DNA of 54,941 nucleotides from Rhodospirillales bacterium (GTDB taxonomy: Bacteria > Pseudomonadota > Alphaproteobacteria > QKFK01 > SZUA-500). The stretch is from assembly GCA_003252195.1 (NCBI GenBank), contig QKFK01000141.1, positions 1 to 54,941 on the forward strand, read 5' to 3'. Shown here in pieces: positions 23,102 through 47,357 of this stretch (position 1 is the first letter of the stretch; each line of letters begins with the position of its first letter). A model generated the notes under the pieces. It searched no databases and had not been told where the DNA came from. It saw only the letters and a program-made list of their open reading frames with translations. A program made the position numbers and the translations under genes.

Positions 23102-23105
23102 GAGA

Positions 23106-23289: not shown

Positions 23290-23330
23290 GCGAGGTTTGC
23301 AGACCTCGCATCTCATATAAACTAGTGCGC
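23290..23330 (+). other. Candidate oriT (inverted repeat plus MOBQ-like nick-region core)
   Basis: Hairpin gcgaggt-ttgcag-acctcgc (23290-23309), followed 12 nt later by ctAGTGCGCt (23322-23330). This resembles the AAGTGCGC core of RSF1010-type nic sites. It lies upstream of mobC/relaxase. Confidence 0.35.
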
Positions 23331-23442
23331 TAACACCAATCTGAATAACAATTAGATTGTAATGTATTTTTGCAACCAAAATCAAGGATTATTTTCTACA
23401 AAAATATATTGGTGAGCACTTATCCAAAAAAGGGTATATAAG

Positions 23443-28159: not shown

Positions 28160-28628
28160 GTCAGATCTCCTTAAATTTTATAACGACACACTCAGTATAT
28201 TGTTCATATTCACAGCCTAGTATTTTACTAATATAATTCTAATCTAGCAACCTAAATTATCTATCTTCATAGCCTAATTAAGTGCATTAAAATCCATATC
28301 ACACTCAGATACTGTGGCATCTCTAGTTTCAACTATGTACATCAACAAACACAAGGATAATACTGGTAGATTTTATAGTAGAAAACACCTAGATCAACCA
28401 TCTGAATGGTACGCTTAACCCCACCCTGCCACTCAAAAGAAAATTAACAATACTGTAAATGGCAAATAAAAAAGAGCTTAAACACGTGTAAAACAACCAA
28501 ACTCTTTGATCAAGAATAAAAAACAGCTTGAGTTGATTGAAAATTAAGGTAATCATTTGTATGATGAGTTTAATTTTATAAAACAAACAATAGTTGATTA
28601 AACATCTTAAGAGACTTAAGGACAAGCC

Positions 28629-31217: not shown

Positions 31218-32397
31218 TGTAACATGGATAAACATCCCTGATCTGAGGTTTAATGGCTTTAGTGATGAGTGGGAAGAAAAAGAATTGGAAGCTCTTGCCA
31301 ATAAATTTGATAATGAAAGAGTTCCTATATCTGCAAGAAATAGAACAAGCGGAAACACCCCTTACTATGGGGCGAATGGTATTCAGGATTATGTTGAAGG
31401 TTATACGCATAAGGGGGAATATGTTCTTGTAGCAGAAGATGGAGCTAATGATATTAAAAATTATCCTGTGCAGTATATTAACGGAAAAGCCTGGATAAAC
31501 AATCATGCTCATGTTTTACAAGGAAAGAAAGAAGTATTAAAAACACTTTTTTTAAAATATCTTTTTTCTCAAACAAATATTGAGCCATTTTTAGTAGGTG
31601 GTGGTAGAGCAAAATTAAATGCATCCGTTATGATGAAAATTAACTTTGTTTATCCTCAAAACATAAACGAACAAACAAAAATTGGCAACCTATTCAAAAA
31701 TATTGATGAGTTGATTACCAATCAAGATAAAAAAATAAAAAAGCTTGAAAATATCAAAAAAGCTCTGCTTGAAAAAATGTTCCCTCAAAATGGAGCAACT
31801 ACCCCAAAATTAAGATTCAAAGTGTTTAATGATGACTGGGAAGAGTGTAAACTGAGAGATATTGCTGATATTATTGGAGGTGGTACGCCTAACACTAGTG
31901 TTTCAGAGTATTGGAATGGATCTATAGATTGGTATGCTCCTGCTGAAATTGAAGGACAAAGATATGCTATCTCGAGTAAAAAGAAAATAACAGAATTAGG
32001 CTTTCAAAAAAGTTCTACAACAATGCTTCCAGCTAAAAAAACATTACTCTTTACTAGTCGTGCAGGAATTGGAAAAATGGCTATATTGCTAAATCCAGCA
32101 ACAACGAATCAAGGATTTCAATCTCTTGTTTTAAAAGACGGATACAATTCATATTTTATTTATTCTCTTAGTAGTGATATTAAAAAGAAAGCTGAGAGTA
32201 TCGCTTCTGGCTCAACATTTCTTGAAATATCAGGAAAGATGCTTGGCAGTCTTGTAATACAAGTAGTATGTGAAAACGAACAAACAAAAATCGGCAACCT
32301 ATTTAAAAATATTGACGATCTCATCGCTCAACAAAATCAAAAATTGGAAAAATTAAAAAACATCAAAACCGCCCTGCTTGGCAAAATGTTTGTATAA
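31201..32397 (+). CDS. hsdS: Type I R-M specificity subunit HsdS (two TRDs)
   Basis: PDLRFNGFSDEW start region. The conserved spacer is duplicated as NEQTKIGNLFKNID(E/D)LI...L(E/G)KMF at mid-gene and at the C-terminus. The true start is probably ATG 31207/31210. Confidence 0.9.
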   Translation: MVMMSNVTWINIPDLRFNGFSDEWEEKELEALANKFDNERVPISARNRTSGNTPYYGANGIQDYVEGYTHKGEYVLVAEDGANDIKNYPVQYINGKAWINNHAHVLQGKKEVLKTLFLKYLFSQTNIEPFLVGGGRAKLNASVMMKINFVYPQNINEQTKIGNLFKNIDELITNQDKKIKKLENIKKALLEKMFPQNGATTPKLRFKVFNDDWEECKLRDIADIIGGGTPNTSVSEYWNGSIDWYAPAEIEGQRYAISSKKKITELGFQKSSTTMLPAKKTLLFTSRAGIGKMAILLNPATTNQGFQSLVLKDGYNSYFIYSLSSDIKKKAESIASGSTFLEISGKMLGSLVIQVVCENEQTKIGNLFKNIDDLIAQQNQKLEKLKNIKTALLGKMFV

Positions 32398-32409
32398 AAG
32401 GAGATTATA

Positions 32410-35400
32410 ATGACATTTAATACAGAAAAAGAATTTGAAAATGCATTTATAGCTCTCCTTACAACAAAAGGCTGGGAATCTGAGGTTATTTATAATCCAA
32501 CAGAAGAACAACTAATTCAAAATTGGGCAGATATCCTTTTTAATAATAACAAAGAAATTGATAGATTAAATAATCAAGCTCTAACTGATGGTGAGATGGC
32601 TCAAATTGTTGAACAAATAACGGCTTTAAAAACTCCTCTAGCCCTCAATGGCTTTATCAATGGCAAAACTGTTACAATAAAAAGAGATAATCCAAATGAC
32701 ACCTTGCACTTTGGCAAAGAAGTTAGCTTAAAAATATATGACCGTCACGAAATTGCTGCAGGGCAAAGTCGTTATCAAATTGTTAGCCAACCACAATTCA
32801 AACGACAATCACCTCTTGCTCATGACCGCAGAGGTGATGTTATGCTACTGATTAATGGAATGCCAGTTATTCACATAGAGCTGAAAAAAAGTGGTGTTCA
32901 TGTTAGTCAAGCTTACAATCAAATAGAAAAATACTCATCAGAAAGTATTTTTACTGGCTTATTTTCTCTTATTCAAATTTTTGTAGCAATGAATCCTGAA
33001 GAAACTCTTTATTTTGCCAATCCAGGACAAAATGGTATATTCAACAAGGATTATTATTTCCATTGGGCAGATTTCAATAATGAGCCAATAAATGAATGGG
33101 GAAAAGTTACAGTTTCACTCTTATCAATTCCGATGGCACATCAATTAATAGGTTTTTATACCGTTGCTGATAACGGCGATGGACTATTAAAAGTTATGCG
33201 TTCTTATCAATATTATGCTGCTAATTCAATTTCTGACAAGGTTGCAAAAATAGATTGGAAAGCAAAAAATATTTATGGCGGTTATATTTGGCACACCACA
33301 GGAAGTGGTAAAACAATGACTAGTTTTAAGTCAGCTCAGCTTATTGCTAGCTCAAAAGATGCTGATAAAGTTATCTTTTTAATGGATAGGATAGAACTTG
33401 GCACTCAGTCATTAAAAGAGTATCGTGGCTTTGCAAATGATAATGAAACTGTTCAAGCAACAGAAAATACAATCATTTTAATCAATAAATTAAAAAGTGG
33501 TTCACCCCAAGATACTTTGATTGTAACCTCTATTCATAAAATGAGCAACATTCAAGAAGATGGTCTAAACACAAAAGATATTGCAAAAATGAACTTAAAA
33601 AGAATAGTGTTTATTGTGGATGAGGCTCATCGTTCCACCTTTGGAGATATGTTAATTAATATTAAAGATACGTTCCCAAATGCAATATTTTTTGGCTTTA
33701 CTGGCACCCCAATTCAAGATGAAAATGCAAAAAAAGATCATACTACTGCAACGGTCTTTGGAGACGAGCTTCATAAATATACAATTGCCGATGGCTTGCG
33801 TGATAAAAATGTGTTAGGTTTTGACCCTGATAAAATTCTTACATACAAAGATAAAGACCTAAGAAAAGAAATTGCTTTGCTAAAATCCAAAGCGAAGACA
33901 GAAGTTGAAGCTCTTGCCAATCCTCAAAAAGCCGCAATTTATCAAAAATATATGGATAGTAATCAAATTAAAATGTATGGCTATCAAACAGATAAAGGGG
34001 AATATATAAAAGGTATTGAAGATTACGTTCCCACAGCTCAATATGAAAGAGAAGAACATCAAAATATAGTTGTAACAGATATCTTAGATAACTTTTTAAG
34101 ATTAAGCCGTAATAAAAAATTTCATGCCATTTTTGCAACATCTAGCATCAAAGAAGCAATAGAATATTATCGCCTTATAAAACAGAAACAACCAGATTTA
34201 AAAACAACAGCTCTTTTTGATCCTAATGAAAATAACGAAAGACCATCAAAATTTAAAACAGATGGGATTATTGAAATATTAAGCGATTATAACAATAGAT
34301 TTAATCAAAGGTTTGAGCTTGCAACTCATGGAAAATTTAAAAAAGATATTTCATTGCGTATGGCTCATAAAGAATACTACAAAAACATAGATCCAGATAA
34401 GCAGTTAGACTTATTGATTGTCGTTGACCAAATGCTAACAGGCTTTGATTCTAAATGGGTAAATACTTTATATCTTGATAAGAAGTTAGAAAATGAAGGA
34501 CTTATTCAAGCATTTTCTAGAACCAACCGCCTATTCAATCAACATGAAAAACCTTTTGGAATAATTAGATATTATAGATACCCACATACAATGGAGCAAA
34601 ATATTCAAAAAGCCCTAAAACTATACTCTGGAGATAAGCCATTAGCACTATTTGTTGATAAGCTAGAACAAAACCTTATAAAAATGAATGAAGTTTATAA
34701 TGAGATTTTTAACCTATTTGAATGTGCTAAAATACAAAACTTTGAAAAATTGCCCGATGATAATTCAGAACGAGCAAAATTTGCAAAACTATTCAAGCAA
34801 TTTTGTAATCATCTGGAAGCTGCCAAAATTCAAACATTTGTTTGGGAAAAGCTAGAATATAAATTCTCAAAAAGAGTTATTAAGCTCAATCTTGATGAAG
34901 CAACTTATTTAACTCTTCTACAACGTTATAAAGAACTATCAAAAGATACTGGTGGCGGTCAATACAATGATGTTGCTTTTGATATTGATGGTTATTTAAC
35001 AGAAATTGATACAGATACAATTGATTTTGATTATATGAACTCTCGTTTTGATAAATATCTTAAAAATTTATCATCTGCTGATAAAGATGAAATAAAATCA
35101 GAATTACATAAATCTTTTGCTATTTTATCACAAGAAGATCAAAAATATGCAAATATCTTTTTACATGACATCGAGTGTGGTAATATTGTTTTAGAAAATA
35201 GCAAAACCTTGAAAGACTATATTACCCAATATAAATACACTGCCGAAGAAAAAAGGATTGATAAGATTGTAGATGCTTTAGGCGTTGATAAAACTTTATT
35301 AAAAGCAATGCTAAACACAGGTATTACAAAAGCAAATATCAATGAATACGGCAGGTTTAATAATTTAAGAGAAAGTGTTGATAAAAACAAAGCAAGAGAA

Positions 35401-35505
35401 TATTTTAATCAGCGAGATAATGAGAACCTACCAGTTTTTAAATTAAACATAGCAATAGATAATATTTTAAGAGACTTCATTTTAAGCAATGGAGATTTTT
35501 CATGA
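32410..35505 (+). CDS. hsdR: Type I R-M restriction subunit HsdR
   Basis: N-terminal nuclease GDVMLLINGMPVIHIELKK, then HTTGSGKTMTSF (motif I) and VDEAHRS (motif II). Confidence 0.9.
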   Translation: MTFNTEKEFENAFIALLTTKGWESEVIYNPTEEQLIQNWADILFNNNKEIDRLNNQALTDGEMAQIVEQITALKTPLALNGFINGKTVTIKRDNPNDTLHFGKEVSLKIYDRHEIAAGQSRYQIVSQPQFKRQSPLAHDRRGDVMLLINGMPVIHIELKKSGVHVSQAYNQIEKYSSESIFTGLFSLIQIFVAMNPEETLYFANPGQNGIFNKDYYFHWADFNNEPINEWGKVTVSLLSIPMAHQLIGFYTVADNGDGLLKVMRSYQYYAANSISDKVAKIDWKAKNIYGGYIWHTTGSGKTMTSFKSAQLIASSKDADKVIFLMDRIELGTQSLKEYRGFANDNETVQATENTIILINKLKSGSPQDTLIVTSIHKMSNIQEDGLNTKDIAKMNLKRIVFIVDEAHRSTFGDMLINIKDTFPNAIFFGFTGTPIQDENAKKDHTTATVFGDELHKYTIADGLRDKNVLGFDPDKILTYKDKDLRKEIALLKSKAKTEVEALANPQKAAIYQKYMDSNQIKMYGYQTDKGEYIKGIEDYVPTAQYEREEHQNIVVTDILDNFLRLSRNKKFHAIFATSSIKEAIEYYRLIKQKQPDLKTTALFDPNENNERPSKFKTDGIIEILSDYNNRFNQRFELATHGKFKKDISLRMAHKEYYKNIDPDKQLDLLIVVDQMLTGFDSKWVNTLYLDKKLENEGLIQAFSRTNRLFNQHEKPFGIIRYYRYPHTMEQNIQKALKLYSGDKPLALFVDKLEQNLIKMNEVYNEIFNLFECAKIQNFEKLPDDNSERAKFAKLFKQFCNHLEAAKIQTFVWEKLEYKFSKRVIKLNLDEATYLTLLQRYKELSKDTGGGQYNDVAFDIDGYLTEIDTDTIDFDYMNSRFDKYLKNLSSADKDEIKSELHKSFAILSQEDQKYANIFLHDIECGNIVLENSKTLKDYITQYKYTAEEKRIDKIVDALGVDKTLLKAMLNTGITKANINEYGRFNNLRESVDKNKAREYFNQRDNENLPVFKLNIAIDNILRDFILSNGDFS

Positions 35506-35580
35506 CAACATATACAACGAAAATGCTATAACGAATGATACTTTCAATGATTTAATTTTAGAGTAAAAAAAGGTAACTGT

Positions 35581-35711
35581 ACGGCATCGGAACAAGTGGG
35601 ACAAACTAGGATGTATTGTTAAGGTGTAGTTTTTGGTTTATCGTAGTGACTGGAAGGAACGAAGATGAACAAAAAACTACATAAGAGCGAGCGTAAAGCG
35701 ATAGCTAACAG
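35581..35711. repeat. Right arm of the ~130-bp inverted repeat
   Basis: Reverse complement of 26282-26411 (~88% identity). Confidence 0.9.
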
Positions 35712-35958
35712 ACTCATTAGGCGAAATATTTTTGACCAATTCTGAAAGATTTTTTCGATTTGCGCAATGTTCATATTTTAATCTTCCTTCTGGTTTTGGG
35801 CTTTTTCTATCCTCTAATGTTATGAAGATAGAAAATAATTGAAATTGAATAAAAAGACAAGTAGATTGAATAAGTTTTGAAAGCTATGCCTTACAAAATA
35901 TTTTAAGGTATCTTAATTGTGTTGGATCATGCAATAATATAAAACATTGAGAGTAAAC

Positions 35959-38178
35959 ATGCCTGACAAAATAAAGTTAAATCTAGAAAACTGCTATGGC
36001 ATTGGAAAACTAGAAGAAGAGTTGGAATTCAAGCATAAAGGCTATGCGATTTACGCCCCTAACGGCGTAATGAAAACATCATTTGCGAAAACAATGATAG
36101 CGTTGTCTAAGGGCAACAATCCTGAAGATCTAGCTTTTCCAGAGCGCAACACGATTTGCGAAGTAACTTGGAATGATGTCTTTATAAAGAGCGAGGAAAT
36201 ATTTGTTGTCAAATCTTATGACGATAAGTATTCACCAGATGGTGTCTCAACTCTGTTGGCTAATGAAGCCTTAAAGGCTAAATATGAAACGATACACAAA
36301 GATATTGGTGAGGCTAAAAAAAGCTTAGATAAAAGACTACGACATCTAGCAGGTTATGGAGAAAAATCCAGAGAAAATTTAGATCCAATTCTGGAGCGTA
36401 TTTTCAAGCAGCAATACTATGATGCGTTGTTAAGTATAGAATCTGAAATTGATACACTTAAAAAAGAAGATTTTGGCGATGCTGATTATAAAATAATTTT
36501 CAATCAAAAAGTTATAGACTTACTAAAAGAAGACACATCCAAAGCCAATATTGACGACTTTGCTCAAAAATACGATGAGCTTACTGAAAGGTCACCTATT
36601 TTAAGAAAAGGTTTCCAGTACCATCATGTTAACCAAGTTCGTCAACAGTTGCAATCAAACAACTTTTTCGCTGCTGGTCACACTATTAATCTATGCGATA
36701 AAAATGATGGCAAGAAAGAAGAGCTTGCGACAGACTCTTCTTTGCTAAAACGAATTGAGGAAGAGAAACAGCGTGTTTTCAGTGATCCTGATTTAAAGAA
36801 AAAATTTGATACCTTTAACGCTAAGCTAAAAAATAAAGAGTTACAAGATTTCAGGGATTACATTACACAAAACCAACATATTTTACCAGAGTTACAAGAT
36901 CTTGAGGCTTTTGAAAGAAAGCTATGGCTACAGTATCTTTATAGATCAAAAGCAGAATATGAGTTACTAATAGAGAAGTATAAAAAAGGCCAGGTTGAAC
37001 TTGCTAAAATAATTTCTGAGGCCAAAGACAATAGGAATGATTGGGATAATGTTATCGATGATTTTAATCGCCGCTTTTTACACTTGCCTTTTCAGCTTTC
37101 GGTCGAAAATAAAGCGGACGTAATTCTAAAAGATACAGCCCCTTCGGTGGTATTCAATTTTATTGATGGTAAAGATCAACGCAAATACCCAGCCACCCAA
37201 AGAAATGACTTGTTAAATCTCCTTAGTACAGGGGAAGCTAGAGCATTGTATATTTTGAATATAATGTTTGAAGTACACACAAGATGGAATGCTCGTAAAA
37301 AGACGTTGTTTGTTTTTGATGATATTGCAGACTCATTTGATTATAAAAACAAATTTGCAATTATTGATTACCTTGATTACATCATTAAATCTGAAGATAC
37401 AAACTTCATAGCAATTGTTCTTACACATAACTTTGATTTTCTTCGCACTATTGAGAGTAGAGATATATGCCTAGCAAGCCAGTGTTATATGGCACTAAGA
37501 AATCAAGGTCAAATCACATTAACGCCATTCAAGAACCGATCAGATATCAGGAATCCATTCCATAAGTGGAAAAATAGGTTGAATGAAGCAGAAATTCAAA
37601 TTGCTTACATACCATTTCTAAGAAATGTGATTGAATATACGTGCGGAATAAAAGATGAACATGGGGCGGATAACGCAGACTATATAACCCTTACAAATAT
37701 GTTGCATTATAAAGATGAAACAGAAGATTTAAAAATCCAAGATTATAAAAATATTTTTGAGAAATATTTTACAAATCTAACTTTCCCGCAGGTTAATTTA
37801 AGTAAAGATATTTTAGGCTATATAAAAGAAACGGCAGATAATTGCTTAAATCAACAGGATGGAATAAATCTTGAACATAAGATTGTTCTATCGATAGCAA
37901 TTCGTATTTTGGCCGAAAAATTTATGATTGAAAAGATTCGAGGTGTTGAACCAGATTATGATCCTGCACAAAAACAGATGGGTAAATTACTTCATGACTT
38001 TAAAAATAAGTTAAACAACCTGATTGATGATATTAGGCTTTTAAAGAGAATTAATCTAATTACCCCAGCAAATATCCACATTAATGCTTTTATGTATGAG
38101 CCTATTTTAGATATGGGTTTTGGTGAATTAAAGGATCTATACCAAGAAGTTAATGCACGGCAAGCATCCCAACCTTAG
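35959..38178 (+). CDS. ABC-type ATPase of the PrrC/RloC (AAA_13-like) kind with long helical insert and C-terminal R-x3-E...H segment
   Basis: Degenerate Walker A YAPNGVMKTSF, signature LSTGEARAL, Walker B LFVFDDIADSFD and LTHNFDF. C-terminal FLRNVIEY...NMLHY. The ATG at 35959 with a GAGAG RBS is preferred over TTG 35947. Confidence 0.6.
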   Translation: MPDKIKLNLENCYGIGKLEEELEFKHKGYAIYAPNGVMKTSFAKTMIALSKGNNPEDLAFPERNTICEVTWNDVFIKSEEIFVVKSYDDKYSPDGVSTLLANEALKAKYETIHKDIGEAKKSLDKRLRHLAGYGEKSRENLDPILERIFKQQYYDALLSIESEIDTLKKEDFGDADYKIIFNQKVIDLLKEDTSKANIDDFAQKYDELTERSPILRKGFQYHHVNQVRQQLQSNNFFAAGHTINLCDKNDGKKEELATDSSLLKRIEEEKQRVFSDPDLKKKFDTFNAKLKNKELQDFRDYITQNQHILPELQDLEAFERKLWLQYLYRSKAEYELLIEKYKKGQVELAKIISEAKDNRNDWDNVIDDFNRRFLHLPFQLSVENKADVILKDTAPSVVFNFIDGKDQRKYPATQRNDLLNLLSTGEARALYILNIMFEVHTRWNARKKTLFVFDDIADSFDYKNKFAIIDYLDYIIKSEDTNFIAIVLTHNFDFLRTIESRDICLASQCYMALRNQGQITLTPFKNRSDIRNPFHKWKNRLNEAEIQIAYIPFLRNVIEYTCGIKDEHGADNADYITLTNMLHYKDETEDLKIQDYKNIFEKYFTNLTFPQVNLSKDILGYIKETADNCLNQQDGINLEHKIVLSIAIRILAEKFMIEKIRGVEPDYDPAQKQMGKLLHDFKNKLNNLIDDIRLLKRINLITPANIHINAFMYEPILDMGFGELKDLYQEVNARQASQP

Positions 38179-38287
38179 GCCAATCAGTTCACTAACAAAA
38201 CATTCTTTTACTTAAGGAATCTTAATATATGTTTGCTACATATTATTAATGTATACAGAAAAATTAATCTGATTAAGAAAGAATAAT

Positions 38288-38986
38288 ATGAACAAAGAAC
38301 ATTTTAATAAATTTAGTGAATGTATAAATGATTCATTAAAAGAAGAGCAATGGGTTGGCAACAACATAAATAAATGGTGGAAGTGGGTTTCAGCTAAAAC
38401 AGAAACTCAACTACATTGTGACGCGTTACCAAACAATAGATTAACAAGAAAAGAACTAAAATCTTTATGCAGTAACAACAGTGGAGCATCAGATCTAGCT
38501 TGCTCTATTGCGATTATGGCTTGGGGTGGTCAAAATAGAAATCACGGCATAACTCTATTTAATAGATTTGATGAAATCAAGCCCATTATTAAGGATATGA
38601 GAAAAGGAAACATAAATCATATAGAAGCTTATAAGCAATTTTATAAAATATGGATTGCCGAAAAACCATTAGGCATGGGAGCCGCATATTTTTCCAAGCT
38701 AATATTCTTCTGTGAACCAAGCCACAAAGGCTACATAATGGACCAATGGACTTCAAAATCTATAAATATGCTTACAAATGAACCAATAGTCCATCTCATA
38801 TCTAATCATGTTAGCAACAAAAACACTGATATAACATACTCAACGTTCTGTAATACAGTAGATAATATTGCACAAACTCTAGGATATAAAGGCGAAGAAA
38901 TAGAAATTGCAATGTTTTCTAAAGGTGGACGCAACAAATGGCAATGGAGGGAGTATGTGTGTAATAACTACAACAAACAAACATAA
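38288..38986 (+). CDS. Hypothetical 232-aa protein (possibly a helix-hairpin-helix/OGG-fold-like protein; unverified)
   Basis: Segments IMAWGGQNRN and GMGAAYFSKLIFFCEP...YIMDQW recall glycosylase-fold proteins. Lies 110 nt downstream of the ATPase. Confidence 0.3.
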   Translation: MNKEHFNKFSECINDSLKEEQWVGNNINKWWKWVSAKTETQLHCDALPNNRLTRKELKSLCSNNSGASDLACSIAIMAWGGQNRNHGITLFNRFDEIKPIIKDMRKGNINHIEAYKQFYKIWIAEKPLGMGAAYFSKLIFFCEPSHKGYIMDQWTSKSINMLTNEPIVHLISNHVSNKNTDITYSTFCNTVDNIAQTLGYKGEEIEIAMFSKGGRNKWQWREYVCNNYNKQT

Positions 38987-38999
38987 TTGACTTTCGACC

Positions 39000-39270
39000 C
39001 TTTTGTGGGGCAAGTACTCTTGCTTGCAATGAGTGTTTGACACTTATAATTTGAGATTAAAAATATCCTAATAATTAACATTTCAATATTAGGACTTACC
39101 CACAAAAGTAGGTATTAAAAACATTGTTCCTCAGGGTTAAAAAGTCATCATTAAAACATATTATTATATGGTTTAAGCTGGTAAACATTTAGCAAGATAA
39201 ATTAATAAGAATATATTTGTATCCCCTCTTACTTTTATAGGTTGCAAGCAAGAGTAAGTGGGGTACAAAT
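39000..39270. repeat. Nested inverted repeats (MITE-like or structured RNA)
   Basis: cttttgtggg (39000-39009) pairs with cccacaaaag (39099-39108), and cctaata (39067-39073) with tattagg (39087-39093). A 15-nt perfect IR, tactcttgcttgcaa (~39015-39029), matches ttgcaagcaagagta (~39242-39256). Confidence 0.8.
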
Positions 39271-39293
39271 TACAATTCTTATCTAATAATTAA

Positions 39294-39350
39294 GCATAAA
39301 AAAGCCAATCTTCACTACGGCCAGTTATGGTGCAAGCGTGAGATTGGCTT
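39294..39350 (-). terminator. Intrinsic terminator-like hairpin (13 bp, 1 bulge, 22-nt loop) with U-run on minus strand
   Basis: 39302-39315 pairs with 39338-39350. The plus-strand A-run at 39298-39303 gives UUUUUU after the stem on the minus strand. Confidence 0.55.
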
Positions 39351-39362
39351 ATTCATCTAGTT

Positions 39363-39457
39363 GAGCTTTTTTAGATTTGCAACCTCAATGCTCTTTGAGG
39401 TTTACTGAAACGAGCTTTTTTAGATTTATAACCTCGATACTCGTTCGAGGTTTACTG
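39363..39457 (-). repeat. Two tandem ~45 nt hairpin units, same family as 22701-22800 but on the minus strand
   Basis: Plus-strand readings are aacctcaa-tgctct-ttgaggtt and aacctcga-tactcgt-tcgaggtt, with a compensatory A:T to G:C change. On the minus strand the loops read AGAGCA and ACGAGTA, and both units end in aaaaaagctc. Confidence 0.9.
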
Positions 39458-39492
39458 TAGATGAACCTAAACATAACATATTTTAAATAACA

Positions 39493-39654
39493 TAACAAGA
39501 AATTGTTACTTCCTGAGCTTTGCGTAACAAAAATCTGTTATATTCTAATAAAAAATCACAAAATTCTGTTATGTTGACGTCAATTAATAACAAATATTTG
39601 TTATATTTTGCTAATTCATAACACTTTTTTGTTATACATAACAAAAATCTGTGA
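39493..39654. promoter_or_regulatory. Phased array of six 16-bp palindromes TAACA-N6-TGTTA
   Basis: Sites at 39493-39508, 39525-39540, 39556-39571 (TCACA), 39588-39603, 39619-39634 and 39639-39654 (TGTGA). Start-to-start spacing is 32, 31, 32, 31 and 20 bp. Confidence 0.85.
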
Positions 39655-39694: not shown

Positions 39695-40078
39695 TTAACT
39701 CTTATTCTTCTCGTTTCTTGTCATTTCACGCTTTTCTCTAATGGATTTATCAATTATACCAGCTAGCTTTCTGAAAGTTCTGTCGCTAAGTTTTCTGAGG
39801 CCAGAATCAGCCCAATCATCTCCAAAATAACATCTTAAATCGTTAAAGTCCTTAAACCTATCCGTTGATGGGATAACCTCTTCAATAATGTATCTTTCCA
39901 TAAGATGCCCTAAATTTTCTTTACGACACCATCCGTTTTCAATGATTTGCACCATCAAAGCACCGAGTAGCTCATTCTGCCTTTTCTCACGAGCAACATT
40001 CTCACTTATGACTTGCTCTTTAATCGCCAGAACCTGTTTATCAATAGCATCTAATGGTGCTTCAAAGTCATCTGACAT
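39695..40078 (-). CDS. Hypothetical 127-aa protein
   Basis: ORF with a GGAGG-like RBS (aaaggagggg) upstream. No recognisable motif. Confidence 0.5.
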   Translation of the reverse strand: MSDDFEAPLDAIDKQVLAIKEQVISENVAREKRQNELLGALMVQIIENGWCRKENLGHLMERYIIEEVIPSTDRFKDFNDLRCYFGDDWADSGLRKLSDRTFRKLAGIIDKSIREKREMTRNEKNKS

Positions 40079-40112
40079 AATTTCCCCTCCTTTTAACTTG
40101 GTTATCTTTGAA

Positions 40113-40147
40113 TTTTCAAGGAACCTATATATAAGATTCCTTGAAAA
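40113..40147. promoter_or_regulatory. Perfect 11-bp inverted repeat operator overlapping a TATATA box upstream of orf127
   Basis: ttttcaaggaa (40113-40123), 13-nt spacer, ttccttgaaaa (40137-40147). The spacer is cctatatataaga. Confidence 0.6.
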
Positions 40148-40358
40148 TGCTTATTCTAGCCGCAAATATTATCTCATTTTCTGGTGGGTTATTTCCTGAA
40201 CCCTGCCATTTAATTGATGCATATCGCTATCAATTGAGCTTAAATGTGAGTTTATTGAAAATAACTGAGCTAAGCATAGTATTGAGGCTACAGCTATTAC
40301 CAATATTGCAACATTACGAATTTTATCTGACATCTTTACCTCATATCTGAAAATAATA

Positions 40359-40715
40359 TTAACGCATACATGGCTTATCGTATTTATAATAGGTCTTGTC
40401 TAATTTAAACACACCCTTGAACTTAGTGCTTCCTGTGTACCAGAATATGCCCATTGGCATATCTTCTTGCCACTGAATGTCCATGGAGCCAACTTGACAC
40501 CCTGGTACATAGAAATAAATTTTGTTATAGTTTCTCGCGCTATCGAATATCTTAGTTGCCTTACCTTTACCTGCATACTCATCTTCGAAATAAATTTTAG
40601 TATCTTTGGTTGGACCTTCGGCCGTGATTTTATAATCTGGCAAAATCCTATCTCCTATCATTCCACAGGCCGATAAGCTTGCTATAACAAATAAGCTTAA
40701 AAATACTCTTTTCAT
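40359..40715 (-). CDS. Small lipoprotein
   Basis: Signal peptide with lipobox: MKRVFLSLFVIASLSAC. Confidence 0.65.
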   Translation of the reverse strand: MKRVFLSLFVIASLSACGMIGDRILPDYKITAEGPTKDTKIYFEDEYAGKGKATKIFDSARNYNKIYFYVPGCQVGSMDIQWQEDMPMGIFWYTGSTKFKGVFKLDKTYYKYDKPCMR

Positions 40716-40724
40716 ATCATGCTC

Positions 40725-40970
40725 CTATGCTGCCTTTTTAACTTCTTCTTTGATTTCTTTTTTAAGCTTATTTAGCTCACGCTTTGTATTTGCCTTGCTA
40801 ATGATAAAGCAAGTAGCAATCACATTAAGAATGTGCAACAGCACACCAAAGCCCATCACAAACGTAACCAAGCTAACGATAAACACTATTCCAGAGATTA
40901 TTGCAGATATTATCTTGCGAGATATGAGCAATGATAATGGCGGAATAAAAATAGCTAAAATGTAATTCAT
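40725..40970 (-). CDS. Small two-helix membrane protein with Lys/Glu-rich tail
   Basis: Hydrophobic segments ILAIFIPPLSLLI and GIVFIVSLVTFVMGFGVLLHILNVIATCFII. Lies 9 nt upstream of the lipoprotein gene. Confidence 0.55.
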   Translation of the reverse strand: MNYILAIFIPPLSLLISRKIISAIISGIVFIVSLVTFVMGFGVLLHILNVIATCFIISKANTKRELNKLKKEIKEEVKKAA

Positions 40971-41001
40971 AATTCACCCCTTCCTATTTAGGTTTTTTAA
41001 T

Positions 41002-41135
41002 AAAAAAAGACCGCCAAATGTTAATCTGGCGATCGGGGTGTTAGAAAACCTTGATACATATAAAGGCACGCAATTCTTTGGCCATGAATACACATAGCTT
41101 GAACATACAATTACGTCACCCCGATCATAAGATCG
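41002..41135 (-). promoter_or_regulatory. Attenuator-like leader with mutually exclusive terminator and antiterminator pairings
   Basis: Terminator: 41009-41016 pairs with 41027-41034, plus a U7 run from 41002-41008. 41031-41040 (gatcggggtg) is perfectly complementary to 41117-41126 (caccccgatc). 41122-41126 also pairs locally with 41131-41135. Confidence 0.5.
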
Positions 41136-41393
41136 AGGTAACAATTTTTCGGCTTGTTTCACCGTATGTATCGAAGAGGTTTCTACGCCCCACCAATCAA
41201 GCCAAAGCAAATTGCCTTCACTTAAACCAGCAGGACTAATTTATCTGAATATGCTTAAAAATTCAATCTTTTAATTAAGCCTAGACTTATACAAAATCGT
41301 ATCAGTGTAAATATAAGTGTTAAATATAATTGTGTTTTATTATATAACTTGGTATTATTCGGACAACATATACCTATAACAAGTAGATAAAAA

Positions 41394-42023
41394 ATGAAAA
41401 AATCAATACTGTTGTTGCTTTTTCTAATATCATCATGTAGATCATTCAATTCTGCTGAACAGATGAAATTTGACAAAATAACAAGCAACAAATTACCTAA
41501 TTTAGAAATTATTTTTAATAATGACGACTTAATTTTCAACTCTACAGCTATTAGCTTAATAGCTGGCGAACAAGCATATGCACTAAACTCTGCACACAAA
41601 GGCGATTTAGAAAATTTTCTAAAAACTCATATTGAGCAACAAATAAGAAACGATATAATTGATGAATATTCATCTCCAAGAGGCTATATATCATTTAGAA
41701 TTGCAGCTAACAACTCCAGCAATGCAGGTTTATTAATGTTTCCAAGCATACTATCTTTAGGCACACTTAATCTACTAGGAATGCCAGCTGGTTGGTCAAA
41801 AACAAAAGTTGAGTTAGAAGCTAGAATATACGACAAAAGCAGAAGACTAATAAAAGTATATACAGGTACTGGCTCAGATAAGAATGTTATAGCTTGTTAT
41901 TATGGCTATAGTGAAATGGATTCAGAAAAAGTCTCAATGGTCAATTCTGTTAAAATTGCTATGAGCTCTATAAAGGAGCAGATTAACAGTGATTACCCAT
42001 ACTTAATATCAAAACTCAAATAG
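41394..42023 (+). CDS. Lipoprotein, paralog 1
   Basis: Lipobox LLFLISSC. The C-terminal half and the YLISKLK end are shared with the next gene. Confidence 0.65.
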   Translation: MKKSILLLLFLISSCRSFNSAEQMKFDKITSNKLPNLEIIFNNDDLIFNSTAISLIAGEQAYALNSAHKGDLENFLKTHIEQQIRNDIIDEYSSPRGYISFRIAANNSSNAGLLMFPSILSLGTLNLLGMPAGWSKTKVELEARIYDKSRRLIKVYTGTGSDKNVIACYYGYSEMDSEKVSMVNSVKIAMSSIKEQINSDYPYLISKLK

Positions 42024-42034
42024 GTATCATAAGA

Positions 42035-42649
42035 ATGAATAAAGCGTATGTTTTACTATTTCTACTTATTGCTTCATGTCGATCTCTAGATGTTATTGAC
42101 GCATTAAAAGTAAGTAATAATAACAACTCGAACAAACTCCCAACTCTTGTCACGCTATCTGATGATAACATGACAATGAAGAATGAAAAAGGCATTAGGA
42201 CTTCCAAACTACGGAATGAACAATATGCATTAATGAGCAAAGAGTTTAACAGCCTATTTATTAGAGAGTTAGAAAACAATATTACATATCCATACGGCGA
42301 ACCTAAGGGGTATATCCGTGCAGAAATTATAACAAACGACTTGAACAACAACTTTTTTACAATAATACCATCAGCGTTTTCATTAGGAATATTAAATTTA
42401 CTTGGGATGCCTTTTAACCACCCCAAATACTCATTAAATTTTGAATTTTCTTTGTACAACACTAAAAAAGAATTGATAAAAAAATATACTATATATGCAA
42501 GTGGTAGTGCATGGTCTGCTGCATACTATGGATACAATGAAATAAATGCAGAAAAAAAGGCGTCTTATAATGGATTCAAAGACGCTCTAAATCAGTTAAA
42601 ACAAGAGTTACAAACAGACCATAAATACCTGATATCAAAACTAAAATAA
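42035..42649 (+). CDS. Lipoprotein, paralog 2
   Basis: Lipobox FLLIASC. Shares P(R/K)GYI, LNLLGMP, YYGY and the YLISKLK end with paralog 1. Confidence 0.65.
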   Translation: MNKAYVLLFLLIASCRSLDVIDALKVSNNNNSNKLPTLVTLSDDNMTMKNEKGIRTSKLRNEQYALMSKEFNSLFIRELENNITYPYGEPKGYIRAEIITNDLNNNFFTIIPSAFSLGILNLLGMPFNHPKYSLNFEFSLYNTKKELIKKYTIYASGSAWSAAYYGYNEINAEKKASYNGFKDALNQLKQELQTDHKYLISKLK

Positions 42650-42658
42650 ATCATATAT

Positions 42659-43336
42659 TTAGTGAAGAATAGTTTCTTCGTCTTTTTCTATATACTCTAG
42701 AGGTCTTACTCTTCTGACACTAAGATAATGTTTTAACCCTAGTTCTCTAACCTTTAGCGTATCAAACATTGCCATAGTGTTTTTAGAAGGGTATTTATCT
42801 ATTTTATTTCCTCTTTCAAACACACATGCCATAGCACTTGAACGCACATAGTTTTCTTTTTTCATTTCTTTGGTGTAAGGTTTAAAATCGTGGCGACGAC
42901 CTTTACTTCTGTAAAAATACTCCCCTTTTTTATCTATTTTTATTTCTTCTGGCCAACCAGGCTCACACACAAAACATTCATCGTTATTTTTTAGTAGATC
43001 ATCAATATATTCTAGACCGCCATCATTAATATTAAGCCTACCCATTTTAGGTTTTTTAAGACTATACAGGTGCAATTCATCATGTTTAAGCTTATTAAAA
43101 AAGGGGAATGCCGCACCATTAGATGCTATTGTTCTATCATCATCAGGCAAAACTTCTCTTTTATAATATATGTTTAGCCTATCAATAAAATTTTTATAAA
43201 ATTTATACTTGTCACTTGTTAAATATATTGGTGTTTTATTTATATATATTTTCGCAATTATAACCCTTCGAATGGGGTAGCCTAGCTTTCCAAAAACAAA
43301 CTTAAGCAAACCAATAAGTCTCATATTAAATAACAT
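42659..43336 (-). CDS. Hypothetical 225-aa protein
   Basis: ATG preceded by AGGAGG. Lies 14 nt downstream of the preceding ORF. No motif recognised. Confidence 0.5.
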   Translation of the reverse strand: MLFNMRLIGLLKFVFGKLGYPIRRVIIAKIYINKTPIYLTSDKYKFYKNFIDRLNIYYKREVLPDDDRTIASNGAAFPFFNKLKHDELHLYSLKKPKMGRLNINDGGLEYIDDLLKNNDECFVCEPGWPEEIKIDKKGEYFYRSKGRRHDFKPYTKEMKKENYVRSSAMACVFERGNKIDKYPSKNTMAMFDTLKVRELGLKHYLSVRRVRPLEYIEKDEETILH

Positions 43337-43350
43337 ATTAGTCCTCCTTA

Positions 43351-44100
43351 TTAATTTATAATAGTAGGCTTGTTATTATTACGCATATAATCCAGTTCAT
43401 TAATTTTATGACATATTGCCCTTAGCATTGCCTTATTATAATATTCATTAGATATAGAGAGGATATTAGTTCTATAGCGGATTACCCCCGTATATTCACG
43501 ATTAAAATCTTCAGGGGAGTAATTATCGACTTCAAAATATGCTTCTATATTCTTACCACTACAAACAGCTTTTCCAAAAACGTGATACTCATCCCAAATA
43601 ATATCTATTTCTTTTGTTTTTATATATGGAAAAGCATAAAGGTAATCTTCAACGCAAACACCCATAACAAAGTTAGGCCTAGTCATAATATAATTGACCT
43701 TTGCTTCGTCTGCACAAGAGAGCTGATGTTTAGAATAATAATTATACATAAGCTCTCTCTTAGCCTGTTCATATGATAAATAAGCCATAGATTTAACCTT
43801 ATCTTCTACAATCTCAGCAACAACCAATCCATTATAACGATAGGCAGGATGATTCTTAACTCTGTATAACTTCACATCATCAGAAATAAATATATAATCC
43901 TTATCAAGCTTTTCATCGCAGTTAACTGGAGTGAAAAAATAGTGAAAGCAGACTAAATCTTCACGTTTAGGGTCTTCATCAATAGATGAGGTAAAATCGT
44001 GCAAATTAACCAAACGAAACCTATTATGGAAGTCTGCAATTACATTTGAAATAGTACTAATTAAATTTGTAAGGAACCCGCTATTTACTGCTAAAAACAT
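43351..44100 (-). CDS. Hypothetical ~249-aa protein
   Basis: The internal ATG at 44100 has a perfect AGGAGG 7 nt upstream and is preferred over TTG 44154. No motif recognised. Confidence 0.5.
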   Translation of the reverse strand: MFLAVNSGFLTNLISTISNVIADFHNRFRLVNLHDFTSSIDEDPKREDLVCFHYFFTPVNCDEKLDKDYIFISDDVKLYRVKNHPAYRYNGLVVAEIVEDKVKSMAYLSYEQAKRELMYNYYSKHQLSCADEAKVNYIMTRPNFVMGVCVEDYLYAFPYIKTKEIDIIWDEYHVFGKAVCSGKNIEAYFEVDNYSPEDFNREYTGVIRYRTNILSISNEYYNKAMLRAICHKINELDYMRNNNKPTIIN

Positions 44101-44283
44101 AAAGCACCTCCTTGTCAGATATAATTCAATTATCTCAAGCACAAGGTTAACCAAATATTAACAACATAAAATCTGTGGATAATAAGAAACATATGAAATG
44201 TAAATAATTTAGTTTTTGTTCCCACAAACAACATTTGGTATATTTTTACCAGTTTATAAATCTACTTTATAAAAGGATTATCC

Positions 44284-45507
44284 ATGATTGACCCTTTAAA
44301 GCACCCCAGATATTTATTAAGTAAAAAATATACGATTTCACAATCATTCATCAACCTACTTTATGCCTTAACATGGTATCTAGATGGTGATTTTGTCCCA
44401 GATTCATTTAACACCGTATTATTTCTACTACTAAGTATACTATTACTAATCGACAATATTAAAATAATTATGTCTTACCTCGCTCACAAAGGGAAATGTG
44501 CATCAAATATAGGCGTATACATATTAATTACGTCAATAACAATCACACTTATTTGTGTTATTGCCGACAAATATATGCCAGTGATTACATTATCAACAAA
44601 ATATTACTTTTTCGTACCCATGCTTTCATGCTATTTTTCTTCATTTATTATTACTTTTTGCATGATGGAACATGAATATCTAAAGAACATGTTTGCAAAA
44701 ATTAGCGCCTGGTTAAAATTTCAAATAAGATTTGCATGCGTTCCTGAGCATATAATGAATGCAATTCTTGCTGCTGAGGCTAAAGAAGCAGCAGATGCCA
44801 AAGCAACGGCTGAAGCTAAAGAAGCGGCTAAAGCCAAAGCAGCTGCTAAAGCCAAAGCAGCGACTGAAGCCAAAGAAGTGGCTAAAGCCAAAGCAGCTGC
44901 TGAAGCTAAAGAAGCGGCTAAAGCCAAAGCAGCTACTGAAGCAATGGCTAAAGAAGTAGCTAAAGCAGTAGCTAAAGCAATAGCTAAAGCAATAGCTATA
45001 ACTAAAGAAGCACCAGAAGCTAAAGCAGTGGCTGAAGCTAAAGAGGTAGCAGAAGTCAAAGTAGCGGCAGAAGCTAAAGAGGCACTTAAAATAGAGAACG
45101 AAATAATAGATTTTGCAAGCTTGTTAAAAAATAAAGATATTAAAGATATTCTCCCCCTAAAAATGCCTAACAAAGATCTTATTGCAAAAGATCAACATAC
45201 AATAATGTATAAAAACACCATAGAATTTATCAAATATAAAGAACCTGTTATTGTGTGCGAAGAAGATATAAATGATAAAGATGAAAAAAAACACACCGTA
45301 ACAATAGGTCTTTCTAAAAACAAGTTTATAGGAGTTGTACAAAAACTTTATGGAGACAGTATTGTTAAGAAAGAAATCAACAAACAGGCCAAACAATGTC
45401 TTGGGATTATATTTGATCGGTCTAGAGACCGAGAACTTGAAGACCGATTCCTCGAGAATTTTTATACGAAAAATCCTATAAACCAAGAAGAAACGGCGTT
45501 ATATTAG
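44284..45507 (+). CDS. Multi-pass membrane protein with central Ala/Lys/Glu repeat region
   Basis: About four N-terminal hydrophobic helices, then ~105 aa of (A/E)AK(E/A)(A/V)AKAKAA repeats, then a Lys-rich C-domain. Confidence 0.6.
   Translation: MIDPLKHPRYLLSKKYTISQSFINLLYALTWYLDGDFVPDSFNTVLFLLLSILLLIDNIKIIMSYLAHKGKCASNIGVYILITSITITLICVIADKYMPVITLSTKYYFFVPMLSCYFSSFIITFCMMEHEYLKNMFAKISAWLKFQIRFACVPEHIMNAILAAEAKEAADAKATAEAKEAAKAKAAAKAKAATEAKEVAKAKAAAEAKEAAKAKAATEAMAKEVAKAVAKAIAKAIAITKEAPEAKAVAEAKEVAEVKVAAEAKEALKIENEIIDFASLLKNKDIKDILPLKMPNKDLIAKDQHTIMYKNTIEFIKYKEPVIVCEEDINDKDEKKHTVTIGLSKNKFIGVVQKLYGDSIVKKEINKQAKQCLGIIFDRSRDRELEDRFLENFYTKNPINQEETALY
44767..45087 (+). repeat. In-frame degenerate tandem repeats encoding the AKEA-type region
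   Basis: Recurrent gctaaagaagcggctaaagccaaagcagctgct-type units. The mirror ORF on the minus strand (44721-45173) is an artefact of this repeat. Confidence 0.85.
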
Positions 45508-45688: not shown

Positions 45689-45916
45689 ATGGCAAAACAA
45701 GATAATTATTTAAACCAGAAGCAAGTTATCGATTTGATGGGAATAACTAAAACAACATTTAATCGGAATCTTCATAAATACATATATGCTGGAATGCCTG
45801 CAAAAATAGATCTTATTGGCAAATGGAATAAGACTGATATAATAAAATGGCTTAAAAGTCAGAATTTTTCTATTCCGCATGATCCTTTTATAGAAAAGGA
45901 GATTAGCGATGAGTAA
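45689..45916 (+). CDS. AlpA/excisionase-family small HTH protein
   Basis: LNQKQVIDLMGITKTTFNRNL. AGGAG RBS. Overlaps the integrase start. Confidence 0.7.
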   Translation: MAKQDNYLNQKQVIDLMGITKTTFNRNLHKYIYAGMPAKIDLIGKWNKTDIIKWLKSQNFSIPHDPFIEKEISDE

Positions 45917-47120
45917 AATTAAACTACCTACAAATGTTATAAAAAAGGTCACTAAAAGTGGGACATACCTCTATTGGGTTGCACCAAAAAAAGATGTGTA
46001 CCAAGGTTTTAAAGCGAAAAGTTGCCGACTACCAGACGACAAGTTTTCTATGAACAAAATGGCTCATGAATTAAATCTAGAACTTGAAGAATTTAGAAAT
46101 CAAGATACTTTTTGTTTAGTTGGTGATGTTTTAACCAAAAATCCAACTTTTCAGAATGTTATAGATTGGTTTAAAACAACTGCTGAATTCACTACATCCA
46201 TAGAAGAAAAGACCAGAAAAGACTACATATACAGCCTAAATAGATTTTTAGACACACAAGTTCCGTGGAGAAACAACAATACAATTTCAGAGATTAGAGT
46301 TACTTCATTTGTTCCTGGCGAAGCATTAAGAATGAAAAACCTATTACTACAAAATTGCTTGTCAGGATCTGGTGAAATACAAACGAACAGAATTCTGGCA
46401 ATTGCAAACAGAGCTTTAAATCTAGCAGAAGATTTTGATGTTATAGAAAGCAATCCATTCAAAAAGGTAAAGAATTTTAGAGAAAACACGCGTAGTAGAT
46501 TTGACGAAAGTACAATTTTTACGAAAGATGATATTGATAAATTAGTATATTGCTCTGACAATAATGGATACCATGAATTATCATTAGCAATATTGCTGGC
46601 AAACCACCTGTGTCAACGTATGGGGGATGTTGTAAATAGCATAAAAAAATCATCCATTAAAAACAACTTTGATACAATTGAGTTCATCCAAAACAAGACA
46701 AAGAAGCATGATACTCACCCTCGTATTTTCCCATTAAAAACTCCAGGTGGAAAAGAAATATTCCCAGACCTGCTACCAAGGATAAAAGAAATGTTTTATC
46801 TGCATAATTTAGACACATTAATAGCCTATAAAAGTAAACATAGCGGAGAATATATTAAATACAATACAGACCTCGTACGCAAGCATTTCCATAAAGTACG
46901 TAAAATAGCTGGTGTATCAGAGGCAAAGAAATTCATGCATTTCAGATCAAGTGGTTTAACTGCTATGGCAAAATGTGGTTGCGACCAACAAATGTTGTTA
47001 AACTACTCAGGACACAAATCTATTAAAATGCTTGATAGATATGTTAAATCAGACACGTCGCAAACCATTCTTGGAGCAATGAAACGATTTCACCCTGAAA
47101 GGCTAAACGACGAGGTATAG
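45909..47120 (+). CDS. int: Tyrosine site-specific integrase
   Basis: C-terminal catalytic region MHFRSSGLTAMAKCG...LLNYSGHKSIKMLDRYV (HxxR ... GH ... Y). Lies adjacent to the tRNA attachment site. Confidence 0.85.
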   Translation: MSKIKLPTNVIKKVTKSGTYLYWVAPKKDVYQGFKAKSCRLPDDKFSMNKMAHELNLELEEFRNQDTFCLVGDVLTKNPTFQNVIDWFKTTAEFTTSIEEKTRKDYIYSLNRFLDTQVPWRNNNTISEIRVTSFVPGEALRMKNLLLQNCLSGSGEIQTNRILAIANRALNLAEDFDVIESNPFKKVKNFRENTRSRFDESTIFTKDDIDKLVYCSDNNGYHELSLAILLANHLCQRMGDVVNSIKKSSIKNNFDTIEFIQNKTKKHDTHPRIFPLKTPGGKEIFPDLLPRIKEMFYLHNLDTLIAYKSKHSGEYIKYNTDLVRKHFHKVRKIAGVSEAKKFMHFRSSGLTAMAKCGCDQQMLLNYSGHKSIKMLDRYVKSDTSQTILGAMKRFHPERLNDEV

Positions 47121-47281: not shown

Positions 47282-47357
47282 TGGTGCCGACACACGGACT
47301 CGAACCGCGGACCCACTGATTACAAATCAGTAGCTCTACCAACTGAGCTATGTCGGC
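47282..47357 (-). tRNA. tRNA-Thr (anticodon UGU), 76 nt with encoded CCA
   Basis: The reverse complement reads GCCGACATAGCTCAGTTGGTAGAGCTACTGATTTGTAATCAGTGGGTCCGCGGTTCGAGTCCGTGTGTCGGCACCA. It has a 7-bp acceptor stem, anticodon loop TTTGTAA and a TTCGAGT T-loop. Confidence 0.9.

Follow-up and report, generated by a model that had tools for sequence, protein, structure and literature searches.

Anatomy of the island array

The stretch of DNA analyzed here, referred to as the window, comprises the whole 54,941 nt of contig QKFK01000141.1 from a Rhodospirillales bacterium (assembly GCA_003252195.1). It carries two intergenic loci with tandem RNA hairpins, one on the chromosomal flank of a mobile island (locus 1) and one on the island itself (locus 2). 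Locus 2, the subject of this study, is with high confidence a diverged array of the TenpI type, the RNA antitoxin of TenpIN type III toxin-antitoxin systems, that lacks its toxin gene tenpN. A preliminary description made from the sequence had presented it as the second copy of a small regulatory RNA (sRNA)-like locus. The features of the locus and of its sister are as follows:

39493-39654: six TAACA-N6-TGTTA palindromes, starting at 39493, 39525, 39556, 39588, 39619 and 39639, with spacings of 32, 31, 32, 31 and 20 bp
39498-39470, minus strand: putative sigma-70-type promoter (TTGTTA at 39498-39493, 17-nt spacer, TATGTT at 39475-39470)
39457-39412, minus strand: unit 1, a TenpI-like repeat with an 8-bp stem, AACCTCGA (39452-39445) / TCGAGGTT (39437-39430), and the loop ACGAGTA
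39407-39363, minus strand: unit 2, a TenpI-like repeat with an 8-bp stem, AACCTCAA (39402-39395) / TTGAGGTT (39388-39381), and the loop AGAGCA
39362-39348, minus strand: beginning of a third, partial repeat (AACTAGATGAATAAG), which has the GATGA linker motif found in canonical arrays
39350-39298, minus strand: intrinsic-terminator-like hairpin (39350-39302, 13 bp, one bulge, 21-nt structured loop) and T6
39297-38987, minus strand: non-coding gap at the position expected for the toxin, with no tenpN open reading frame (ORF) or remnant
39270-39215, minus strand: second long imperfect hairpin, ~28 nt past the first terminator, where tenpN would begin
22698-22806, plus strand: sister locus 1, two canonical 6A/TenpI units on the chromosomal flank, with a terminator at ~22813-22841 and no toxin gene before attL, the left boundary of the island

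Direct reading of the minus strand from 39457 to 39363 confirmed two tandem hairpin units, with the stems, loops and common ends that had been described. The units are 45-46 nt long, in agreement with the ~45 nt given previously, whereas the start-to-start period of the repeat is 49-50 nt; the locus contains two full units and the beginning of a third. Both stems are perfect and differ from each other by one compensatory change from G:C to A:T. In unit 1, the stem-loop (predicted hairpin energy −10.5 kcal/mol) is followed by an A-rich spacer and the tail GCTC; unit 2 has an A-rich spacer and the same tail (AAAAAAGCUC), and AAAAAAGCTC forms the 3′ end of both units. The GATGA motif at the start of the third repeat was compared with the linkers of canonical arrays, for example AATNGATGAT. 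In the predicted minimum free energy structure, TTCATCTA (39465-39458) pairs with TAGATGAA (39359-39352), so that both units are enclosed. The whole 179-nt minus strand folds with a predicted energy of −50.2 kcal/mol, compared with −32.6 ± 3.7 kcal/mol for shuffled sequences (z = −4.75, 0/200).

The 13-bp terminator hairpin with a U-run that had been proposed was likewise found, with one bulge and followed by T6. Our simple terminator scan allows loops of 3-8 nt only, and therefore missed this terminator with its 21-nt loop. The second hairpin, at 39215-39270, has fold z-scores of −3.3 on the minus strand and −3.7 on the plus strand and is surrounded by non-coding DNA. Speculatively, it may be a former distal terminator that was brought beside the first one by deletion of the toxin gene.

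Upstream of the units, the hexamers, the spacer and the overlap with a palindrome previously described for the putative promoter are all present. However, the site matches the consensus at 4/6 + 4/6 positions (8/12), below the cut-off of the promoter scanner, and promoter-like sites in this region are not in excess over shuffled sequences (6 versus 5.7). The scanner instead reports GTAACA-18-TAAAAT at 39509-39480. We thus treat TTGTTA-17-TATGTT as a weak candidate promoter. The palindromes lie between the stop codon of the orphan gene orf127 and this promoter and are phased at ~31.5 bp, or three helical turns; one half of the first palindrome, TAACAAGAAATTGTTA (39493-39508), is the −35 hexamer TTGTTA. 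No second cluster of such palindromes was found anywhere else in the window. Judging by its layout, the palindrome array could be an operator, an iteron or a centromere-like site for a protein. For orf127, neither a homologue nor an exact record was found among 5.8 billion proteins.

6A RNA as the TenpI antitoxin repeat

An Rfam scan of the whole window gave two tandem matches at locus 1 to RF02925, "6A RNA", with 50.1 and 45.7 bits (gathering score 41.2), which makes locus 1 a bona fide member of that family. Unit 2 of locus 2 matched 6A end to end, spanning the whole 52-position model, with 31.0 bits (E-value 6e-4 in a 601-nt search), under the gathering score of 41.2 bits; unit 1 gave no 6A match at E ≤ 10. 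The Rfam model contains a 6-bp hairpin only, without a pseudoknot. In Rfam, 6A is typed as "Gene; sRNA" and counts as a candidate sRNA; no function is given.

The two-locus pattern was scanned against viral and genome contigs (loci labelled L001-L034 and L035-L154; loci L188-L240 are also from other genomes). After removal of chance matches, at least 43 loci, or ~30 distinct arrays, carried the same tandem hairpin units. In these arrays, an intrinsic terminator, a ribosome-binding site and an ORF of ~140 aa come after the repeats, and the encoded proteins match NCBIfam NF047358 (type III toxin-antitoxin system TenpIN family toxin) with 124-138 bits against a cut-off of 90. Among the matches listed, a hidden Markov model (HMM) of these proteins found the toxin directly downstream and on the same strand in 36 of 43 loci; six loci are toxin-less (L034, L059, L091, L117, L151 and L153), and the remaining one ends too early. 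Counted as distinct arrays, these matches comprise 23 toxin-linked, six toxin-less and one undetermined array; a terminator and TenpN thus follow 23 of the ~29 with readable downstream sequence, and roughly one in five is without a toxin. The toxin-linked arrays score 42-67 bits with the Rfam 6A model. Since tandem 6A arrays precede the NF047358 toxin and reach these scores, we identify Rfam 6A RNA with TenpI, the antitoxin repeat of the TenpIN type III toxin-antitoxin systems.

A repeat length of 49-50 nt and a copy number of ~2.2 fall within the published ranges for tenpI, whose repeats are 39-57 nt long (mean 50.9) and are present in 1.9-3.0 copies (PMC3401426); the loci of the window agree with these values. 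TenpN toxins have ~143-164 aa, and their toxin-antitoxin and abortive-infection activity has been demonstrated (PMC3401426). A survey of tenpIN from 2025 describes non-identical repeats, a conserved A-stretch and, from manual inspection, a possible H-type pseudoknot; Rfam and toxin-less arrays are unmentioned there (PMC12283969). We found no paper linking 6A to TenpI in a search that did not extend to the supplement of the 2017 paper defining 6A. The assignment gives a function to 6A where Rfam states none. It also replaces the new regulatory sRNA of the preliminary description: the RNA of locus 2 is of an already known kind, and 23 of ~29 distinct arrays of its family among the matches listed precede a toxin gene.

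For a more sensitive comparison of the two loci with this family, we built a covariance model (R1) from 42 TenpN-linked units, with the sequences of the window excluded. All seven stem pairs of the model change on both sides, and its structure, consisting of the stem and the loop-tail helix, is paired in 96.7% of cells compared with 30-41% when the partner is slid. Searched against the whole window with filters off, R1 matched locus 1 with 45.3 bits (E 1.5e-11) and 30.0 bits (E 6.6e-7), unit 2 of locus 2 (39363-39410) with 19.5 bits (E 1e-3), and unit 1 (39412-39460) with 12.5 bits (E 0.13). The two matches at locus 2 rank third and sixth in the window and lie head to tail and in register. The proposed kinship with 22701-22800 is thus supported by the Rfam 6A and R1 matches, and the two loci belong to one RNA family, locus 2 being the more diverged member; the significance of the covariance-model match is modest and rests on unit 2. 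The pattern AAAGCTC-N14-26-AGAGC-N20-21-AAAGCTC matches loci 1 and 2 only in the window, with 0.00 matches expected from shuffled sequences.

A set of 53 viral tenpIN loci, collected by their TenpN protein rather than by the RNA pattern, revealed a pairing that the Rfam model lacks. In these protein-ascertained loci, four loop bases pair with the four bases ending the A-rich spacer, and the pairing varies from unit to unit: GAGC/GCUC, GGGC/GCCC, GAAC/GUUC, GAGU/ACUC and GGAUA/UAUCC were observed. More distant arrays have CGGU/ACCG against CGGC/GCCG, as well as GGAUG/CAUCC, GGUAA/UUACC and GGCGU/GCGCC. In an alignment of 24 protein-ascertained toxin-linked units, the pseudoknot pairing is present in 97.9% of cells, compared with 21-47% when the partner is slid; three of its four pairs change on both sides, with 16 compensatory cells against 4.9 ± 2.0 in shuffles (0/500). 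This is unit-by-unit covariation support for the loop-to-tail pseudoknot proposed in the 2025 survey (PMC12283969).

Both units of locus 2 have the potential to form this pseudoknot. In unit 2, which has an AGAGC-type loop, an A-rich stretch and GCUC, sequence complementarity predicts pairing of GAGC (39393-39390) with GCUC (39366-39363). In unit 1, with its variant loop ACGAGUA, CGAGU (39443-39439) is complementary to GCUCG (39415-39411), a pairing proposed by analogy with toxin-linked units; the extra C of the loop is matched by a G after the tail, a position occupied by A in unit 2. In toxin-linked arrays, it is normal for a variant loop to pair with a matching tail. The two potential pseudoknots and the compensatory G:C to A:T change between the stems thus indicate that both units are structurally intact TenpI repeats.

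The low R1 scores of locus 2 have parallels among arrays that retain their toxin. In the protein-ascertained loci, the toxin-proximal unit scores 41-65 bits, whereas the promoter-proximal unit often scores just 10-32 bits, and arrays beside more distant TenpN proteins (25-37% identity) reach at most 18 bits or give no score. A low score is therefore as much a mark of subfamily divergence as of decay. Locus 2 shares with TenpI (PMC3401426, PMC12283969) about two tandem, non-identical ~50-nt repeats, the hairpin, the conserved A-run and the loop-to-tail pseudoknot in each repeat, and the location on mobile elements or defense islands; the putative promoter before the repeats and the predicted Rho-independent terminator after them would correspond to those of TenpI. 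Unlike TenpIN, it has no tenpN, and its weak putative promoter is embedded in phased palindromes. Its sequence has diverged from TenpI as well, with 8-bp AACCTCNA stems, an AGUAA linker in place of GAUGA, and a spacer that is 1 nt shorter.

ToxI and CptI, of ToxIN and CptIN, follow the same operon logic and the same principle, in which an endoribonuclease toxin processes the repeat precursor and is inhibited by pseudoknotted units that contain A-rich segments; they differ from locus 2 in repeat length (~36 nt in ToxI, ~45 nt in CptI) and belong to other sequence and toxin families. The Rfam scan gave no ToxI or CptI similarity at locus 2.

Several further observations were made on arrays in other genomes. 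The toxin-less arrays lie at unrelated loci, with downstream genes including a dihydrofolate reductase, an amidohydrolase-like protein, a membrane protein and an Rpn-like nuclease, and they have no alternative neighboring gene in common. Several of them carry near-consensus TTGACA-17-TATAAT promoters, and one (L034) is on a viral contig (IMG/VR contig 3300029305_001893). The array of toxin-less L151 differs from that of toxin-linked L045 by one base per unit. In at least two cases, tenpN is broken beside an intact array, by an in-frame stop in L040 (1379-1931) and by a frameshift in L077 (7458-7967); these look like intermediates of toxin loss. L077 additionally carries a Termite-flg RNA. One viral tenpIN locus, represented by L224 (1340-2100) and L225 (500-640), is complete and has an extra promoter-array-terminator unit immediately downstream of its toxin gene, giving the order TenpI-TenpN-TenpI. 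The loop of the extra array is GAGGGUA and its tail (G/U)CCC, in place of AGAGC and GCUC. No toxin ORF was evident in the ~400 nt read downstream of it, where no formal ORF or HMM search was made. On phage contigs, Skipping-rope RNA (RF02924) was found 0.6-2 kb from tenpIN (L001, 11109-11179; L008, 6255-6327). A blastn search of E. coli genomes with a viral tenpIN locus gave no match, and tblastn of an L049-type TenpN against plasmids returned eight records, all "hypothetical" or unannotated.

Absence of the toxin and probable origin of the orphan array

No toxin gene was found at either locus. At locus 2, the ORF list contains no minus-strand ORF of more than 45 aa in the stretch from 39297 to the end of the gene for an OGG-like protein that lies beyond the gap, and tblastn with seven TenpN proteins gave no match in the gap. 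A TenpN HMM built from 24 sequences (hmmsearch --max) matched no ORF of the window at E < 1.9 and gave only negative bit scores against three-frame translations of 38700-39300 and 22800-23500; locus 1 likewise has no TenpN downstream according to the HMM on ORFs and three-frame translations. Weak tblastn matches of TenpN at 6752-7003 fall within the gene of a type III restriction enzyme (PADLOC score 1130); we rejected them as noise. Neither orf127 nor a 148-aa ORF (42016-42462), considered as displaced toxins, had TenpN HMM, Pfam, PADLOC or PHROG support. Both tandem-hairpin loci correspond to the antitoxin halves of TenpIN abortive-infection modules in two adjacent defense islands.

In a complete TenpIN module, the promoter drives about two tandem repeats of ~50 nt, and the terminator lets only a part of the transcripts reach tenpN. 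Cleavage of the repeat precursor within the A-rich stretch by the endoribonuclease TenpN yields unit-length pseudoknotted RNAs, which bind and inhibit the toxin. Transcription of locus 2 would yield an RNA of ~170 nt, and tenpN, expected to begin no more than ~60 nt past the terminator, is missing. The most likely history is that a TenpIN module formed part of the defense cargo of the island and then lost its toxin. Such decay is viable only if the toxin goes first, because loss of the antitoxin before it would kill the cell. The leftover RNA would no longer be able to act in cis, and any remaining role would be that of a trans antidote for TenpN made elsewhere.

We favor, with modest confidence, the reading of locus 2 as an orphan TenpI array left behind when the TenpIN module of this defense-loaded mobilizable island lost its toxin; the deletion and the present inactivity of the array are what we infer from its layout. 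Such a relic is favored because defense islands turn over quickly and only toxin-first decay is viable, and also because broken or missing toxins occur elsewhere and the promoter of locus 2 is weak. Several findings weigh against it. The RNA bears no signs of decay, with perfect stems and intact pseudoknots and terminator, and two orphan arrays within 17 kb, together with orphans elsewhere that have consensus promoters, hint at selected retention. Phased palindromes at the promoter are foreign to canonical TenpIN loci and find no explanation in toxin loss. The covariance scores of locus 2 are modest and unit 1 by itself is not significant, while a 16.3-bit R1 match occurs in AT-rich coding sequence inside hsdS (31703-31746), where we take it as chance and as a yardstick for weak scores. 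No close relative of locus 2 was found among plasmids, viral contigs or metagenomes, so that its descent from a complete TenpIN is inferred rather than seen: BLAST against plasmids gave no match for locus 2 and only a distant hsdM match for the island; all 31 matches of AAAAAAGCTC-N34-46-AAAAAAGCTC in viral contigs are coding K/A-rich repeats or unrelated sequence; AAATCTAAAAAAGCTC gave 110 chance matches in viral contigs, none with a hairpin and a second tail; and in metagenomes the AGTAA-type tandem pattern matched no more than two gut contigs, which are identical to each other and toxin-linked. A partner tenpN may also lie beyond the 55-kb window that the toxin search covered.

The main rival reading is a maintained orphan antitoxin: the island RNA would act in trans as a decoy against addiction or abortive infection, neutralizing a TenpN-type endoribonuclease whose gene resides elsewhere, whether in the host, on a plasmid or prophage, or on a competing element. 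In its favor, stem 1 and a unit-specific pseudoknot are preserved in both units, the terminator is intact, and two toxin-less arrays share one 55-kb window; the phased palindromes could give regulated expression. Elsewhere, toxin-less arrays recur at unrelated loci with near-consensus promoters, one of them on a viral contig, and in L224 and L225 a complete tenpIN is followed by an additional array. The orphan state also has a known analogue in another family. The Pectobacterium phage PhiTE, a mobile element, carries antitoxin-like pseudo-ToxI repeats without a toxin gene, for which the host type III toxin (ToxN) is known and suppression in trans was shown experimentally (PMC3475682). PhiTE differs from locus 2 in antitoxin family (ToxI versus TenpI) and in carrier (phage versus mobilizable island), and its toxin and activity are known, while locus 2 is known from sequence alone. 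We consider a maintained trans antidote less probable than a relic, although the present data fit both readings. Several points weigh against the antidote. No TenpN is known in the source organism, for which the 55-kb window was searched; type III antitoxins are reportedly highly toxin-specific, and locus 2 is close to no toxin-linked array. Its promoter is weak where those of canonical arrays are strong, the carrier is a defense-carrying mobilizable island and not a phage that needs to evade abortive infection, and intact RNA features may merely predate a recent loss of the toxin. More tentative still is the wider proposal that a toxin-less TenpI array under control of the palindromes as operator serves as a trans antidote against the TenpN toxins of hosts, phages and rival elements, that the chromosomal orphan at the tRNA-Thr hotspot does likewise for the host, and that free-standing arrays are recurrent, selected RNA "vaccines" against toxins. 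If orphans are functional antidotes, they would be relevant to the ways in which RNA-controlled suicide systems are disarmed by mobile elements and by hosts.

Two further explanations dispense with TenpN. An independent sRNA acting by base-pairing with mRNA or by protein titration, perhaps through the palindromes or orf127, would agree with the Rfam type of 6A, with the resemblance of locus 2 to a discrete intergenic promoter-to-terminator unit, and with the existence of toxin-less arrays elsewhere. We regard it as improbable: the family is tied to tenpN in most of its distinct arrays, as counted above, the antitoxin fold (stem, pseudoknot and A-run) accounts for the conserved positions, the toxin-less arrays share no alternative neighbor, and no target or partner is indicated. 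The element-host regulatory cross-talk suggested earlier is likewise not supported, as the family is an antitoxin RNA whose toxin is absent at both loci; nor is cross-talk between the loci suggested, since they differ in stem and spacer sequence. Least probable, to a very marked degree, is a chance resemblance or a repeat that acts at the DNA level, for example a duplicated palindrome used for protein binding or recombination and without any function as RNA. The low R1 scores, the unrelated match in hsdS and the AT-rich region adjoining the palindrome array would fit it. However, the matches are intergenic, head to tail, on one strand and in register, a strong terminator hairpin follows them, the exact family pattern is not expected in shuffles, and the fold is far more stable than that of shuffled sequence. 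Unit length, copy number, linker motif, A-run and GCUC tail are all family-like. Taken together, two in-register matches, the exact pattern, a terminator and a unit length and copy number that are both correct make a chance origin untenable.

The mobilizable island and its flank

Locus 2 lies inside an island bounded by direct repeats, and locus 1 lies ~300 nt outside attL, at the edge of a second defense island, which confirms the earlier placement of one copy on the flank and the other on the element. The following features define the island:

23106-23153, plus strand: attL, 48-nt copy of the 3′ half of tRNA-Thr
23443-26053: RepC/helix-turn-helix-like protein (weak, sub-threshold matches), NikA-like protein and MobA relaxase
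26444-28159: GmrSD, cargo
28629-35505: type I restriction-modification system (hsdM, hsdS, hsdR), cargo
35947-38178: PDC-S46, a PADLOC candidate system, 743 aa (PADLOC E 1e-237), cargo
38288-38986: OGG-like glycosylase-fold protein, cargo
45909-47120: integrase
47282-47329: attR, inside the tRNA-Thr gene (47282-47357)

The left flank carries a defense island of its own:

1084-3156 and 3146-4492: Drt3b and Drt3a of a DRT3 system
4496-7462 and 8949-10784: Res and Mod of a type III restriction-modification system, with PDC-M59B/A (7459-8934) inserted between them
11144-11914: AbiJ-like protein
12660-15857: HKD+Snf2 protein
16165-19023: Mko/Hhe-like helicase

The 48-nt direct repeats, 98% identical, correspond to the 3′ half of tRNA-Thr and bound an island of 24.2 kb. 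No transfer apparatus was evident among the island ORFs scanned, including the block at 39695-44154 without family matches. The att repeats, the integrase and the relaxase, with no transfer apparatus evident, therefore identify the island as an integrative mobilizable element. The array inside this tRNA-Thr-integrated island is in that sense the portable RNA module that had been suggested. The cargo from 26444 to 38986 is entirely of the defense type, and the array of locus 2 comes directly after it, in convergent orientation to the OGG-like gene. We considered and rejected a previous tandem island, which would have made locus 1 element-borne, as no third att copy was found.

Among 5.8 billion proteins, a search for integrase homologues at E ≤ 1e-30 returned the query alone, and comparison of the relaxase with plasmids gave only MobP relaxases at about 25-30% identity. 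Neither orf127 nor the integrase has a close homologue in this set; the element comes from a very poorly sampled lineage. On the minus strand at 39695-44154 lie nine small or medium ORFs, with no Pfam match among those scanned; tested against NCBIfam, PADLOC and PHROG, ORFs of this block gave only one marginal PHROG match, that of orf127. Within the ORF at 44284-45507, ~13 head-to-tail copies of an 18-nt unit (GCNGCTGAAGCTAAAGAA-like) occupy 44724-45108; the repeat encodes an A/E/K-rich protein with a weak match to the cell-wall-binding protein EntC.

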